A stretch of 64,000 nt of DNA from Escherichia coli (GTDB lineage: Bacteria > Pseudomonadota > Gammaproteobacteria > Enterobacterales > Enterobacteriaceae): the NCBI RefSeq assembly GCF_044647545.1, contig NZ_CP172818.1. One strand, written 5' to 3'. This document shows positions 25,268-31,659 of the stretch, one piece after another. Position 1 is the stretch's first letter; every line of letters begins with the position of its first letter. A model generated the notes under the pieces. The model worked only from the letters and a program-made list of their open reading frames with translations, was not told the DNA's origin and ran no database searches. The translations under genes and the position numbers were made by a program.

Positions 25268-26407
<1,140 letters not shown>

Positions 26408-26411
26408 TCAG

Positions 26412-26687
26412 CTATTTAAGATAGGCACGAACCAGTTCAATAGTGTCGTCAACGGATTGGCTGACTTCGCGGCTGTAGCAGTCATTTCGGTCAAACGTTT
26501 CCCGGATATGGCTTTCAAGCACTTCTGCCATCAGCCCGTTAGCCGCGCCCCGAACGGCAGCGATCTGTTGGAGTATGGCACGGCATTCGGCATCACCCTC
26601 CAGCGACCGTTCCAGAGCATCAATTTGCCCCCGAATACGACGAACTCGAGTAAGGACCTTTTTCTTCTCTTCCGGAGTACTGGGCAT
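26412..26687 (-). CDS. frmR: formaldehyde-responsive repressor (CsoR/RcnR family)
   Basis: 91 aa from [30 protein letters not shown]...; first gene of frmRAB. Confidence 0.9.
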
Positions 26688-26713
26688 TTCGCACCTCATC
26701 ATCTGCACGCAAT

Positions 26714-26762
26714 ATACTATAGGGGGGTATGCTATATGTCAATGCATACCCCCCTATAGTAT
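26714..26762. promoter_or_regulatory. frmR operator/promoter: 19-bp perfect inverted repeat with G6/C6 tracts
   Basis: atactataggggggtatgc (26714-26732) and gcatacccccctatagtat (26744-26762) lie immediately upstream of the frmR start. Confidence 0.7.
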
Positions 26763-26871
26763 ATAACACTGGAGAATAAAATTTATCCGGTGAATGTAGT
26801 CGGATAACAAAAAGGAAAGAGGGGCCTAATCGACAGGGAAGGCCGCCCCGGATAGCGGGCGGCAGAAGCAA

Positions 26872-27645
26872 TCAGAATTTCCAGGTCAGATGGGCTGCAA
26901 GTTGCAGACCGTTATAATCATCGGTTGGGGTGTCGTACCACACTTTACCTGCCGTCAGCCCGAGATTAAGTTGCTCAGTCAGCGGTTGAATACGTTGCAG
27001 ACTGACGCTCTTCATGCTGCCGTAGCGTGTTTCTGGCGTCCAGTCATAGGTGTAAGCGCCTGTTCCGCGGCTTAGCCATAGTTGCGTATAACCAGTGCCG
27101 CGCGGGTCATTCAGACGCACGGAAATCATATTGCTGTAACTACCACCTGCATCGCTGGAGTCATAATGGGTATAGCGGTAGCTGGAGATCACCGGGCCAG
27201 TATAGAGGGATACGCCGCCTTGCCAGGCATCGACTTCGACATCATCGTAATATTTAGTGTAGCGATAACCGGTCGTGAAAAGCGTTTTTGGCAACAGGGC
27301 CAGGTTAATATCCTGACGAAAATCCTGGCGGGCAAAGACCGGCGTATTATCCGCAAAGGCAATACCCGTTCGGGTTGTCAGCCAGTTATTCCATTTATAC
27401 CAGACCGCACCCTGACCGCGAGTGGCATTGAAATGTTCAGTTTCATAATCACGACGCCCCTGGGAAAGATTAAAAAGCAGCGTTGCGTTTTCAACTTTCG
27501 CCACCAGTTCAGCATACGCTAAATTACGATTGCCATGATCGCCAGAATAATCGGTAAAATCGTAGCCCGCGGTAATGGAAGTTAACCCGGCATAAGCGGG
27601 CAATGTGCTAAAAATGGCCGCCGCTAATAACGTCCGTTTTATCAT
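26872..27645 (-). CDS. yaiO: outer-membrane beta-barrel protein
   Basis: 257-aa ORF with signal peptide (MIKRTLLAAAIFSTLPAYA) and C-terminal aromatic residue (…HLTWKF). Confidence 0.85.
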   Translation of the reverse strand: MIKRTLLAAAIFSTLPAYAGLTSITAGYDFTDYSGDHGNRNLAYAELVAKVENATLLFNLSQGRRDYETEHFNATRGQGAVWYKWNNWLTTRTGIAFADNTPVFARQDFRQDINLALLPKTLFTTGYRYTKYYDDVEVDAWQGGVSLYTGPVISSYRYTHYDSSDAGGSYSNMISVRLNDPRGTGYTQLWLSRGTGAYTYDWTPETRYGSMKSVSLQRIQPLTEQLNLGLTAGKVWYDTPTDDYNGLQLAAHLTWKF

Positions 27646-27646
27646 T

Positions 27647-28203
27647 TTAATCTCCTGTACGGATAAGTTCTTGTCGGAGTGAATAAGTTCCGGTAGGTAA
27701 ATTACGTTCTACAATCACGCGCGGGCCAAGTTGCGTGTTCGGGGAAATAATTCGCCCAGGCAAAATAATAACTTGTACGCCAAGGCGTGAACGCTGTCCG
27801 ATATAACAACCTAATTTATCGCATCCGGTAGCGATAATTCCCTCTGGAGTTCGAACAGACACGGGCTGTTCATCCAGACGATGATTACTGGTACGTACTT
27901 GTGCGCCCAAATATGCCTGGTTTGCGACTACCGAGTCGGCAATAAAACATTGCGGACCAATCGTTGCTTCCGCTTCAATAACCGCATTTTTAATTTCGGT
28001 GGCGAAACCAATTTTTACGCCATTGCTGATTATTGTGCCAGGACGAATAAACGAAATTACCTATCAGGCAGTTTGCGCCAATCACTACCGGACCCTGAAT
28101 AACGGCACCGTGACAAATACGGGTATTCGCGCCGATAACAACTTCACCTGCAGTTTCATCAATAATTACCTGGTCTGCAATCTGAATATTTTTCTCTTTA
28201 ACA
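27647..28203 (-). pseudogene. yaiX: hexapeptide-repeat acyltransferase, frameshifted
   Basis: Hexapeptide repeats (VIGANTRICHGAVIQGPVVIGANCLIGN) continue in another frame (IRPGTIISNGVKIGFA...) with the switch near 28040-28060; no IS element at the break. Confidence 0.7.
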
Positions 28204-29400
28204 TTAAGCTTCAGAAAGTTTTTCAGTTCCTGTGACAGAAGGTTGGGAATAAGCGGTTGACGCTTCCACCAGTGCGGAATAGCGGGTGGGTTTGTCGCGC
28301 TGAGGTTCGCGTCCAGTAAAAAAGGCAATAAGTCCATAAATAATCCAGATGGCATAAGCTAATAATACATACACAACGGAAAGCGGCGCTAAAGGCACCA
28401 ACAACCAGCAACGATGAAACCAGGCGCTAAAAGCACCAATAACACAAACTACGCCGACCCAGATAAGCGGAAACATTGCCAACACCACACCATGCGGCCC
28501 GGTGGTGATGAATTCATTAAACCAGGTAGTGAGATAAATCCCAACGCCATAAAGCACAACCAACAGCATAGGAAATATACTGAAGATACCGAAGCGGCTA
28601 AATAAAAGTCTTTTATGCAGGCGCATACAGACCGCGTAGCCCACAATCCAACGCCGCCAGCGACGCCATTCCTCACGCGGGCTGTTGCATTCCTGTGGGT
28701 ATACGATGCAGCGATTCGCCTGCCGAATACGATAGCCGTTTGCCACCAATGTCCAGGTGAGATCAAGGTCTTCGACTTTAGTACGATCAGAGAAACCGAA
28801 CTTACGCAATACATCAGTACGGAACATCCCGCAGGCACCGCTGATAATAAACGGTGCGCCGCCCAGGAGCTGCTGTAGCGTGCGCTTCATAACAATCATC
28901 GGCAACTTTACGGTCGCGCGGATGTGCGGTAACAGCCCCGCGCCTTTCAACGCAGTAGAGGGAATGCCGCCTACGGCATCAGCACCGCGCTCAATTTCTG
29001 CCAGCATATAGCCCATTCCGTCTTGATCGGGCGGAACATAGGTGTCGGCATCACTTAAAAAAACCTGGTCGCAGGTGGCGTAATTGAGGCCATTCATCAG
29101 CGCACCACCTTTACCGGTATTTTTTTGCGTGACGGCAACAAAGCGGTCGCCCCATTTGCGTTTGACTTCCGCCATGACCGCTTCGGTATTGTCCGTGGAG
29201 CCGTCGTTAACGCAAATTACCCGGCAAAAATAAGGGTTACGCAGCAGATTATCCAGTGACTGCGCCAGACACGGGCCTTCGTTATAAGCAGGTATAATGG
29301 CGTCAATACAGCCTTTTTTTTGGCTGGGCTTACGCCTTAACGTACTCAGGAACCATAGCAATATTGCTACGGCCATACAGATAAATATCCAGGTTTTCAT
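28204..29400 (-). CDS. yaiP: membrane glycosyltransferase, family 2
   Basis: 398-aa ORF with N-terminal TM, GT-A signatures (CVNDGSTDNT, SDADTYV) and C-terminal TM helices. Confidence 0.85.
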   Translation of the reverse strand: MKTWIFICMAVAILLWFLSTLRRKPSQKKGCIDAIIPAYNEGPCLAQSLDNLLRNPYFCRVICVNDGSTDNTEAVMAEVKRKWGDRFVAVTQKNTGKGGALMNGLNYATCDQVFLSDADTYVPPDQDGMGYMLAEIERGADAVGGIPSTALKGAGLLPHIRATVKLPMIVMKRTLQQLLGGAPFIISGACGMFRTDVLRKFGFSDRTKVEDLDLTWTLVANGYRIRQANRCIVYPQECNSPREEWRRWRRWIVGYAVCMRLHKRLLFSRFGIFSIFPMLLVVLYGVGIYLTTWFNEFITTGPHGVVLAMFPLIWVGVVCVIGAFSAWFHRCWLLVPLAPLSVVYVLLAYAIWIIYGLIAFFTGREPQRDKPTRYSALVEASTAYSQPSVTGTEKLSEA

Positions 29401-29409
29401 GCAATTTGC

Positions 29410-30081
29410 TCAAAGAATCATTTTATGAATTACAAAGCCTTCACCCAGATCGCTATTGACCTGTTGCCCGCGAAATTGTGCAACTGCACGCAGGCGATCA
29501 TGACGCATATAATCGCGTCGTTCCTGGCTTTTATGTTTTTTTAATGCAGCAAGTTTGACTGTGAAATATTCTTCTTTAACGGATTCAAAAACCTGAGGCA
29601 TAAATGAAAGCCAGGTACTCGGGGTTTCGTAGCCGAGAATTTGTGGAATAGTTCGGCAGGCAACCATTGAGGCTTGATAGACTGCAAGATGATCCTGATG
29701 GCGGTCAGCATCATGCATGGTGTATACACGAATGATTTCTACATCAGACGGAATTTGATTTTTAATGATGTCTTCCAGGGCGGAAATCATATCATTGAGC
29801 TGTAAATGAGCGCGGGTGTCAGCAAAATTAAGATGAATAGTTTGGTGGCACCCTAATATCTTTAGGGCGTTGCGCGATTCTTCATGGCGATCGATTATTC
29901 CATCTGTGCCAGAGTTGCCGGTAGTCATCACCACGGCTGCGATATAAATTCCTTTTTGCGCAAGACGAGCAAGCGATGCGCCACAGCCTAATTCTATATC
30001 GTCAGGATGTGCGCCAATAGCAAGGATACCCTTTCTTTTATTTGCCGAAGAAAGGAGGGCTGAATCTAAAACCTTATCCAC
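29410..30081 (-). CDS. yaiS: PIG-L/LmbE-family deacetylase
   Basis: 223-aa ORF with AHPDDIELGCG motif near the N-terminus; a shorter 185-aa version (start at 29967) would lack this motif. Confidence 0.75.
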   Translation of the reverse strand: MDKVLDSALLSSANKRKGILAIGAHPDDIELGCGASLARLAQKGIYIAAVVMTTGNSGTDGIIDRHEESRNALKILGCHQTIHLNFADTRAHLQLNDMISALEDIIKNQIPSDVEIIRVYTMHDADRHQDHLAVYQASMVACRTIPQILGYETPSTWLSFMPQVFESVKEEYFTVKLAALKKHKSQERRDYMRHDRLRAVAQFRGQQVNSDLGEGFVIHKMIL

Positions 30082-30696
30082 TTAATGACACTCCATTTTA
30101 TTTATTATACTACAAGCACAACGATGCACTCAGAGACGTAATCTCTGGCGCAGCCAGATGCTAATTTATAAGTGTTAAATGTTGCTAATAATTGAAAAGC
30201 CAGGGCTTTCAGATCCGGGGGGGCGACTGGTTAATGTTTTTATGCAATTCATATGTTAAGTGTTTGTATGTTTGGTATGTATAGTTATTTTGTTTTATAC
30301 ATTGTATTTAGATGTGATTTAGTTTGTCAATTAATTGCATTTAAAAAATATGTTCTGTGAACAAGTATTGTTTATATACATTATGTGAATGTAATATGCG
30401 AGTGATTGAGAATGATACAGTGATATATATAATGCGAATATAATAGTTTTATTATATGTATTGATATTGATAGAAATAATGAAGTAATAAATCTCGTAAT
30501 GTGGTTGTTTATGCATCACTAAAATGAAGTGTAGTAATTTTCCCAATTGTTAGAACGGAGTAATTGCATATTTAATCTTTCCTTTGCCGTTTTTTTGCTA
30601 AGAATAAAATCATCTGTGCGATAACGACTAATTCTTTTAATGAATGTTTTTATTCCTGAATACTGCTCCCATAACAAGACAGGGGAGCAGACAATC

Positions 30697-31659
30697 ATGG
30701 CAATTTCATCGCGTAACACACTTCTTGCCGCACTGGCATTCATCGCTTTTCAGGCACAGGCGGTGAACGTCACCGTGGCGTATCAAACCTCAGCCGAACC
30801 GGCGAAAGTGGCTCAGGCCGACAACACCTTTGCTAAAGAAAGCGGAGCAACCGTGGACTGGCGTAAGTTTGACAGCGGAGCCAGCATCGTGCGGGCGCTG
30901 GCTTCAGGCGACGTGCAAATCGGCAACCTCGGTTCCAGCCCGTTAGCGGTTGCAACCAGCCAACAGGTGCCGATTGAAGTCTTCTTGCTGGCGTCAAAAC
31001 TGGGTAACTCCGAAGCGCTGGTGGTAAAGAAAACTATCAGTAAACCGGAAGACTTGATTGGTAAACGCATCGCCGTACCGTTTATCTCCACCACCCACTA
31101 CAGCCTGCTGGCGGCGCTGAAACACTGGGGTATTAAACCCGGGCAAGTGGAGATTGTGAACCTGCAGCCGCCCGCGATTATCGCCGCATGGCAGCGGGGA
31201 GACATTGATGGTGCTTATGTCTGGGCACCGGCGGTTAACGCCATGGAAAAAGATGGCAAGGTGCTGACCGATTCTGAACAGGTCGGGCAGTGGGGCGCGC
31301 CGACACTGGACGTCTGGGTCGTGCGGAAAGATTTTGCCGAGAAACATCCAGAGGTCGTGAAAGCGTTCGCCAAAAGCGCCATCGATGCTCAGCAACCGTA
31401 CATTGCTAACCCAGACGTGTGGCTGAAACAGCCGGAAAACATCAGCAAACTGGCGCGTTTAAGCGGCGTGCCTGAAGGTGACGTTCCGGGGCTGGTGAAG
31501 GGGAATACCTATCTGACGCAGCAGCAACAAACGGCAGAACTGACCGGACCGGTGAATAAAGCGATCATCGATACCGCGCAGTTTTTGAAAGATCAGGGCA
31601 AAGTCCCTGCCGTGGCGAATGATTACAGCCAGTACGTGACCTCGCGCTTCGTGCAATAA
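30697..31659 (+). CDS. tauA: taurine ABC transporter periplasmic binding protein
   Basis: 320 aa from ATG 30697 with signal peptide (MAISSRNTLLAALAFIAFQAQA). Confidence 0.9.
   Translation: MAISSRNTLLAALAFIAFQAQAVNVTVAYQTSAEPAKVAQADNTFAKESGATVDWRKFDSGASIVRALASGDVQIGNLGSSPLAVATSQQVPIEVFLLASKLGNSEALVVKKTISKPEDLIGKRIAVPFISTTHYSLLAALKHWGIKPGQVEIVNLQPPAIIAAWQRGDIDGAYVWAPAVNAMEKDGKVLTDSEQVGQWGAPTLDVWVVRKDFAEKHPEVVKAFAKSAIDAQQPYIANPDVWLKQPENISKLARLSGVPEGDVPGLVKGNTYLTQQQQTAELTGPVNKAIIDTAQFLKDQGKVPAVANDYSQYVTSRFVQ

Follow-up and report, generated by a model that had tools for sequence, protein, structure and literature searches.

We analyzed a 64-kb window of the Escherichia coli chromosome (contig NZ_CP172818.1; "the window" means this whole stretch of 64,000 nucleotides), in which the gene order is frmA-frmR, yaiO-yaiX-yaiP-yaiS (minus strand), an AT-rich spacer and tauABC (plus strand). 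The subject of this report is the four-gene cassette yaiO, yaiX, yaiP and yaiS, which spans positions 26872–30081. The main new result is that the four genes form one self-contained unit, with a synteny that is invariant among the bacteria that carry it. We favor, with moderate confidence, a reading of this unit as a single operon that makes, edits and secretes a glycan based on N-acetylglucosamine (GlcNAc) or glucosamine (GlcN) by a synthase-type route. Although E. coli has been studied more than any other bacterium, no product has been assigned to the cassette. The literature that we searched gave no functional account of these genes, in line with the preliminary description of this DNA, which had called its function uncharacterized.

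Synteny, mobility and selection of the cassette

Loci were gathered from relatives of YaiO at 35–60% identity and of YaiP at 52–85%, and profile hidden Markov models made from four alignments were run on the six-frame open reading frames (ORFs) of these loci. They came from Salmonella, Citrobacter (with two copies in C. braakii), Escherichia whittamii, Superficieibacter, Ignatzschineria, Lysobacter, Stenotrophomonas, Pseudomonas viridiflava, Acinetobacter, Sphingomonas and several uncultured genomes. The order S-P-X-O and the common strand were kept in every distinct non-E. coli locus with a true YaiP (24/24). The overlap of yaiP with yaiX was also kept throughout, and the junctions were overlapping or near-abutting. 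This places the cassette in Enterobacterales, Xanthomonadales, Pseudomonas, Acinetobacter, Ignatzschineria and Sphingomonadales, and so in both Gamma- and Alphaproteobacteria. No conserved fifth gene (a regulator, a PgaD-like protein, a flippase or a cyclic di-GMP receptor) was found in 23 loci beyond the genus Stenotrophomonas.

The genes flanking the cassette vary from genus to genus, and its GC content tracks that of the host (0.29–0.67), usually lying a few points below it. The whole cassette was found on 47 plasmids, mostly conjugative, which include an IncF plasmid with cnf2, and also on a chromosomal island in some E. coli, beside genes annotated as PAPS reductase and IbrB-like. Because the order is invariant, no fifth gene is shared and the genes move as a block, we regard the four genes together as the unit of function. 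The earlier idea of an operon is strongly reinforced by this synteny, and ORF coordinates agree with the four minus-strand genes and the 9-bp, abutting and overlapping junctions on which it was based (Table 1). The junctions measure 9 nt from yaiS to yaiP and 1 nt from yaiX to yaiO, whilst yaiP and yaiX overlap by 23 nt with the start called by the Prokaryotic Genome Annotation Pipeline (PGAP; window 28226) or by 152 nt with the longest ORF.

Table 1. Positions of the cassette genes and of associated features in the window.
Feature	Position	Strand	Description
yaiS	29410–30081	-	223 aa, GTG start; PIG-L/LmbE-type zinc de-N-acetylase, ORF intact here
yaiP	28204–29400	-	398 aa; inner-membrane family-2 glycosyltransferase, synthase type, 1 + 3 transmembrane segments
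yaiX	27647–28355	-	hexapeptide (left-handed beta-helix) acyltransferase, frameshifted in this strain
yaiX fragments	27990–28355 (121 aa) and 27647–27910 (87 aa)	-	two ORFs
yaiO	26872–27645	-	257 aa; outer-membrane 14-strand beta-barrel
yaiX lesion	28053–28054	-	'CAT' to 'A' (plus-strand sequence), net 2-bp deletion
yaiS/tauA AT-rich intergenic region	30082–30696	.	divergent promoters
Predicted sigma-70 promoter of the cassette	30301–30330	-	TTGACA, 18 nt, TACAAT

A second E. coli copy of the cassette is mosaic, with a YaiS that is 62% identical and YaiP, YaiX and YaiO that are 94–98% identical. Such a step in identity points to a recombination breakpoint near the yaiS/yaiP junction and to a different promoter region. 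This copy was seen in the chromosome of E. coli S9 and on two IncF plasmids, and it was the best match for 562 records. Two diverged whole cassettes lie on different contigs of Citrobacter braakii ATCC 51113, their YaiP proteins being 82% and 79% identical to that of E. coli. The cassette of Salmonella enterica has genes for a PapB-family regulator and a YadA-like adhesin upstream, and ccdAB and an integrase gene downstream. On one IncF plasmid an EAL-domain gene is divergently placed upstream of the cassette, and on a Pseudomonas-like metagenome contig a gene for MvaT, which is H-NS-like, lies directly downstream. These varied neighbors hint at varied regulation and context.

Pairwise ratios of nonsynonymous to synonymous substitution (dN/dS) were 0.02–0.23 in all four genes (unsaturated comparisons). 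All four ORFs were intact in 10/10 E. coli genomes free of insertion sequences (IS) in this region, sampled evenly down the similarity ranking, and 4250 of 5426 complete genomes (~78%) hold at least 80% of the region. Strains LD26-1 and ETEC-2264 are examples with the complete set of ORFs. Insertions of IS1, IS2, IS3 or ISEc20 were present in 5/30 spread-sampled genomes. The cluster was missing in BL21-type strains and in three sampled genomes, two of them O157:H7. K-12 carries two lesions, an IS2 in yaiX (yaiX::IS2) and a change of yaiS codon 186 from CAG to TAG (Q186amber), which makes natural mutants of the laboratory strains where a function would have been sought. Intact alleles are common, and the mutant state of the laboratory strains may explain why nothing has been seen.

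Lesions are common enough for the cluster to be read as an evolutionary remnant, decaying and without a current function in E. coli. To the insertions, the K-12 lesions and the BL21-type and O157:H7 deletions can be added the yaiX frameshift of the window and the binding of H-NS to the promoter region of K-12 (both below). Set against this are the low dN/dS values in all four genes, the complete set of ORFs in each of the ten IS-free genomes, and the retention of the cassette across two proteobacterial classes and on conjugative plasmids. We consider decay without function very improbable.

The four predicted proteins

The preliminary description had taken the products to be a PIG-L/LmbE-type deacetylase (YaiS), a membrane family-2 glycosyltransferase with transmembrane segments at both ends (YaiP), a frameshifted hexapeptide acyltransferase (YaiX) and an outer-membrane beta-barrel (YaiO). 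All four assignments were upheld by the results given in this section, and the Pfam and NCBIfam domain searches placed neither YaiP outside the glycosyltransferases nor YaiS outside the PIG-L deacetylases.

YaiP matches the Pfam families PF00535 (7e-28), PF13641 and PF13632 and carries NDGSTD and DAD motifs. Its best NCBIfam match is PgaC_IcaA (TIGR03937; 9e-29), at 100.6 bits against a cut-off of 422.3. It is 29% identical to E. coli PgaC over 241 aa, with D, DxD, SGxxxFR, ED and xxRW in register. Residues invariant in 36 sequences include D66, D117, D119, E210, D211, R247, W248, R250 and W251, and the D, DxD and ED of the GT-A domain of processive membrane GT2 synthases are all present. The hydropathy profile has one N-terminal and three C-terminal hydrophobic segments, and the strongly positive stretch after the first of these indicates that the catalytic domain is in the cytoplasm. 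Sequence and profile searches of YaiP against the PDB gave matches that cover the N-terminal GT-A part only. Using the AlphaFold (AF2) model, which has a predicted local distance difference test (pLDDT) score of 80, a Foldseek search of the PDB gave hyaluronan synthases as the top matches (TMq 0.60–0.63), with the 'minimal cellulose-synthase-like' PcManGT and then BcsA as the next. GtrB and ArnC overlap YaiP through the GT-A domain only (TMq 0.33–0.39). We call YaiP synthase type on the basis of its best family, the motifs aligned with PgaC and the higher TMq for hyaluronan synthases than for GtrB and ArnC.

The matches of the GT-A domain bear on an envelope-modification route, in which YaiP would make an undecaprenyl-phosphate-linked amino sugar, YaiS would deacetylate it and the sugar would be transferred to lipopolysaccharide (LPS) or another envelope polymer. 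Precedents are ArnC, GtrB and FlmF2 for the lipid-linked sugar, and ArnD and NaxD for the deacetylation, and ArnC, GtrB and DPMS do occur among the sequence or fold matches of the N-terminal domain. However, by the TMq values just given, the overlap of the whole protein with ArnC and GtrB is poor next to that with hyaluronan synthases. Neither a flippase nor a periplasmic GT-C transferase is linked in any locus, and the route has no role for the strictly linked YaiO barrel or for YaiX. It seems to us improbable.

Residues 362–374 of YaiP (window ~28279–28317, minus strand) form a nearly invariant motif, TGREPxRDKPTRY, directly after the last transmembrane segment. The motif is largely disordered in the AlphaFold model (pLDDT <50 from residue 370 on) and, with four transmembrane segments and the N-terminus outside, would be periplasmic despite its positive charge. 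YaiO might dock there or, should the motif be cytoplasmic, YaiS or YaiX.

YaiS matches Pfam PF02585 (PIG-L; E 6e-25). Its best NCBIfam match is BshB1, below the cut-off, and its closest PDB relative is the archaeal diacetylchitobiose deacetylase 8bgn (E 4e-12, with residues 3–218 aligned). YaiS carries AHPDDIELGCG. The AHPDD is present in 6/6 full-length sequences (a seventh gene call is N-terminally truncated), and DRHQDH is invariant among seven family members; with AHPDD, HxDH and the PF02585 match, the protein has the zinc/catalytic motifs and the domain of the PIG-L/LmbE family. No signal peptide and no hydrophobic segment was found in the seven homologs (maximum KD19 of YaiS 1.14). RefSeq/PGAP labels yaiS a partial pseudogene ('missing C-terminus') in every strain examined. 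Despite this label, the 223-aa ORF is full-length, contains every PIG-L motif and evolves under purifying selection. K-12, the reference strain with the Q186amber codon, is the probable source of the call.

Over 2.7 kb, the window departs from the sequence of strain ampC_0069 at one place only, within yaiX, where 'CAT' is replaced by 'A' at ~28053–28054. Undoing this 2-bp loss yields a complete YaiX ORF of 236 aa (the longest ORF; 193 aa from the PGAP start). As ampC_0069 is otherwise identical and does not have the lesion, the frameshift is either private to this strain or a sequencing error. The intact allele (locus L001) has Pfam matches to Hexapep, LbH_EIF2B, LbH_GLGC and GlmU-like models, and its NCBIfam scores are all far below cut-off. 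The closest PDB relative is the C-terminal amino-sugar-1-phosphate acetyltransferase domain of Sulfolobus ST0452 (E 8e-23), and YaiX has the hexapeptide beta-helix of the GlmU/ST0452-type N-acetyltransferases; its homology to LpxD is weak (E ~1e-5). The motifs AQVRTSNHRLD (including SNHRLD) and GPQ are invariant in the family, and no signal peptide or transmembrane segment was found in YaiX. A 2026 paper on yaiX over-expression (PMC13058169) deals with the 71-aa fragment of K-12 and leaves the cluster aside.

YaiO matches the profile TIGR04390 at 183.9 bits (cut-off 32) as well as PF19413 (1.5e-25). It has a signal peptide ending in AYA, 238 mature residues and a C-terminal Phe, and is modeled as a 14-strand barrel (pLDDT 94), so that profile score, signal peptide and beta-barrel all agree with the YaiO family. 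A profile of 50 YaiO relatives gave no match among PDB sequences, and only fold comparison was informative. The closest folds are CymA and OmpG, at 7–11% sequence identity, with FadL-type barrels nearly equal in similarity. From the family description, relatives fused to tetratricopeptide repeats (TPR) would be expected; none was seen among 117 phmmer representatives, in which the full-length matches are all of 250–295 aa. The literature uses yaiO as a PCR marker, and the outer-membrane location of its product is cited in PMC4453288. We rejected a catabolic reading in which YaiO would be an uptake porin and YaiS would deacetylate chitobiose, since genes for a hydrolase, a kinase and an inner-membrane transporter are all missing from the cassette and a biosynthetic GT2 stands at its core.

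Readings of the product and comparison with known systems

In the synthase-type reading that we favor, YaiP is an inner-membrane protein whose catalytic domain faces the cytoplasm, as its hydropathy and positive-inside pattern indicate. It would use a uridine diphosphate (UDP)-sugar, probably UDP-GlcNAc, and its fold and motifs suggest that it would build a beta-linked chain and pass it across the membrane. YaiS would remove an N-acetyl group and YaiX would then add an acyl group back, possible substrates being a nucleotide sugar, the end of the nascent chain or a primer. Since neither protein has an export signal, this editing is probably cytoplasmic. It would resemble the sequence of reactions in LpxC/LpxD or NodB/NodA and not the trimming that PgaB carries out in the periplasm. 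YaiO, judging from its strict linkage and its fold, would let the product cross the outer membrane. In the strain of the window, yaiX would additionally be broken by the private 2-bp deletion. GlcNAc chemistry is proposed because, among solved structures, YaiS is most closely related to GlcNAc deacetylases and YaiX to a GlcN-1-phosphate N-acetyltransferase domain.

Several points weigh against this reading. The product and the transcript of an intact cassette are predictions from sequence and models. YaiX lacks the catalytic His of GlmU; in an ungapped alignment, ST0452 His308, which we take to be the catalytic His of the GlmU type, aligns with the Pro in the invariant GPQCF. It would be futile for a deacetylase and an N-acetyltransferase to act on the same group, and YaiX is therefore expected to use another acyl donor or another position, which its divergent active site would fit. 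In YaiP, R247-W-R-R250-W251 aligns to Q-R-L-R-W of PgaC, so that YaiP retains the RW but has an invariant R in place of the Q of QxxRW, as in the non-processive ceramide glucosyltransferases. YaiP also has only four transmembrane segments, in a model with a pLDDT of 80, and its translocation channel is a prediction. Its neighbors in AFDB50 are mixed: some are named PNAG (poly-N-acetylglucosamine) synthase, some are GT2 domains fused to NodB-type deacetylase domains, and others are named monoglucosyl-diacylglycerol synthase.

The RxxRW form of the motif, the small number of transmembrane segments and the diacylglycerol-glycosyltransferase names among the fold neighbors of YaiP, together with a weak GT21 match, would suit a glycolipid. 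YaiP would then be non-processive or short-processive and would transfer GlcNAc onto a membrane lipid such as diacylglycerol; YaiS would deacetylate the product, YaiX would N-acylate it to give an aminoglycolipid, and YaiO, which is nearly as similar to FadL-type barrels as to its closest folds, would aid it in reaching or crossing the outer membrane. HpnI and HpnK, which act on hopanoids, are a precedent for a deacetylated GlcNAc-lipid. However, the best sequence family of YaiP is PgaC/IcaA and its best solved folds are processive synthases, whilst the names of its AFDB neighbors are automatic and not tested. The mature YaiO has no room for the plug domain of FadL-type barrels, and no lipid-transport partner is linked to the cassette in the loci. 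On balance, we judge a glycolipid to be unlikely.

Like PgaABCD and IcaADBC, the cassette is a compact operon in which a membrane GT2 synthase is combined with a deacetylase and an outer-membrane barrel, and the parallel with PgaABCD drawn in the preliminary description stands as far as this logic is concerned. It does not extend to membership of the family. YaiP, by its score and its identity to PgaC, is no PgaC equivalog; a small membrane partner corresponding to PgaD or IcaD is missing, with only four genes in every locus. YaiS belongs to PIG-L and lacks a signal peptide, in contrast to PgaB, a CE4 lipoprotein of the periplasm, and so deacetylation cannot follow the Pga route. YaiO has 14 strands and no TPR domain, compared with 16 strands plus TPR in PgaA, and the cassette adds a beta-helix acyltransferase, YaiX, that is missing from Pga.

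These differences also bear on whether the product could be a true PNAG of the Pga/Ica type, a poly-beta-1,6-GlcNAc deacetylated after export. The top NCBIfam family of YaiP and its aligned motifs would be explained in this way, as would the presence of a deacetylase and an outer-membrane barrel. Yet four defining features are lacking (the synthase score, PgaD, the exported CE4 deacetylase and the TPR-bearing 16-strand porin), the deacetylase is of a different fold family and is without a signal peptide, and E. coli already has pgaABCD elsewhere. A product of this kind is, in our view, very unlikely. The cassette would work like a synthase-dependent secretion system and is not a member of the Pga/Ica family; a scheme with editing in the cytoplasm and a small barrel without TPR takes the place of the Pga analogy. 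The preliminary description had proposed a cryptic module for glycan synthesis, modification and export. This is the best-supported reading and gains strength from the invariant synteny, the selection and the mobility of the genes, whilst the glycan itself stays at the level of a prediction.

Class I hyaluronan synthases give the best whole-fold matches of YaiP, but share only 13–18% sequence identity with it. NodC resembles YaiP in size and in its layout of 1 + 3 transmembrane segments, and the Nod pathway, like the cassette, combines a GT2 and a cytoplasmic deacetylase with acyl or acetyl transferases, including the beta-helix protein NodL. It differs in that the NodC model scores only 29.3 bits on YaiP (cut-off 550) and that YaiS is PIG-L and not CE4. 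The cassette has no CE4 (NodB) or NodA gene and no NodIJ exporter, and Nod systems are without a dedicated outer-membrane barrel. CymA and OmpG, the closest folds to YaiO, are 14-strand monomeric carbohydrate channels; they serve uptake in catabolic operons, whereas YaiO is strictly linked to biosynthetic genes.

Removal of the N-acetyl group of GlcNAc and addition of another acyl group is known from LpxC/LpxD, from HpnI/HpnK and from Orf2*/Orf11* of teicoplanin synthesis. HpnK and Orf2* belong to the PIG-L family, and LpxD is a beta-helix N-acyltransferase. Unlike the cassette, none of these pairs is linked to a synthase-type GT2 and an outer-membrane barrel. As judged from sequence, the cassette has only distant GT2-superfamily homology with the Nod and deacetylate-acylate systems, and shares their logic.

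The xagABCD operon of Xanthomonas likewise has four genes, of which the second encodes a COG1215 GT2. PIG-L proteins, the family of YaiS, are COG2120. Published work (PMC3609779, PMC3528676) describes xagABCD as a biofilm polysaccharide operon, repressed in standard conditions, that is required for cells to aggregate. PMC9040811 lists XagA without a COG assignment, and in iron oxidizers the relatives of xagBCD are paired with a BcsB-like gene (PMC4643136). Neither the 18 genome loci nor the 120 top-ranked relatives of the YaiP of Stenotrophomonas included a locus from Xanthomonas. On the indirect evidence of these published descriptions and of the locus scans, the xagABCD operon is probably a different family.

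A more specific proposal is put forward tentatively: the cassette may be a minimal mobile two-membrane secretion system, in which a synthase with four transmembrane segments and a 14-strand barrel operate without a periplasmic scaffold. Its product might be a new glucosamine-based glycan or oligosaccharide, the N-acyl group of which would be exchanged in the cytoplasm before export. If this is true, E. coli has a further unrecognized surface glycan, which would also be encoded in CNF2 virulence plasmids, Stenotrophomonas maltophilia and Acinetobacter, and Nod-factor-like chemistry exists outside rhizobia. It would also provide a case of cytoplasmic N-acyl editing of a glycan, and of export without a TPR scaffold. 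A surface glycan of this kind would join cellulose, PNAG, colanic acid and the NfrB product among the matrix and surface polymers of E. coli, and could matter for biofilm formation, the adsorption of phages and interaction with the host. The cassette may be clinically relevant, since it is carried by conjugative IncF plasmids (a CNF2 plasmid among them) and by opportunists such as S. maltophilia and Acinetobacter.

Promoter region and transcription

The spacer between yaiS and tauA is 615 bp long. Its GC content of 0.304, against a median of 0.532, is lower than that of any other stretch of this length in the 64 kb. A promoter scan found TTGACA-18-TACAAT here on the minus strand (an 11/12 consensus match). 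A study of RpoD by genomic systematic evolution of ligands by exponential enrichment (SELEX) assigns the same hexamers to yaiS, with an RpoD peak and an HNS flag at the spacer (PMC3946193). The yaiS(-)/tauA(+) region is listed as an H-NS-associated 'promoter island' in Table 1 of PMC3661553. In the gathered loci, the 400 bp upstream of the cassette are AT-rich in all Enterobacterales (GC 0.26–0.35) and not in high-GC hosts.

Published data and base composition thus both speak for silencing by H-NS in E. coli, and the ~600-bp AT-rich region that the preliminary description had likened to a silenced promoter is borne out in length, composition and published H-NS binding. Because the promoter region of K-12 is bound by H-NS, the cassette is probably silent under laboratory conditions. 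The word 'cryptic' is apt with respect to expression, but not if it implies decay, as purifying selection acts on the genes and most of the sampled strains have them intact.

Within the cassette, consensus matches to promoters and terminators were no commoner than in shuffled sequence (6 vs 8.6; 2 vs 4.6), a result which provides no evidence either for or against separate transcription units. Downstream, in window 26709–26871, no terminator-like site was seen between the yaiO stop codon and the frmR promoter (TTGACA-17-TAGTAT, 26742–26714). Read-through from the cassette into frmRAB is therefore conceivable.

An Rfam search of positions 26400–30800 gave no match, and the PADLOC defense models matched none of the four proteins. 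A 39-codon ORF, ykiC, lies at window 29425–29544 on the plus strand, antisense to the 3' end of yaiS, and its product is identical at 38/39 positions to YkiC, a small protein of K-12 that PMC6001520 lists. PMC4666370 mentions an antisense RNA inside yaiP. Antisense expression within this H-NS-bound region may be spurious.

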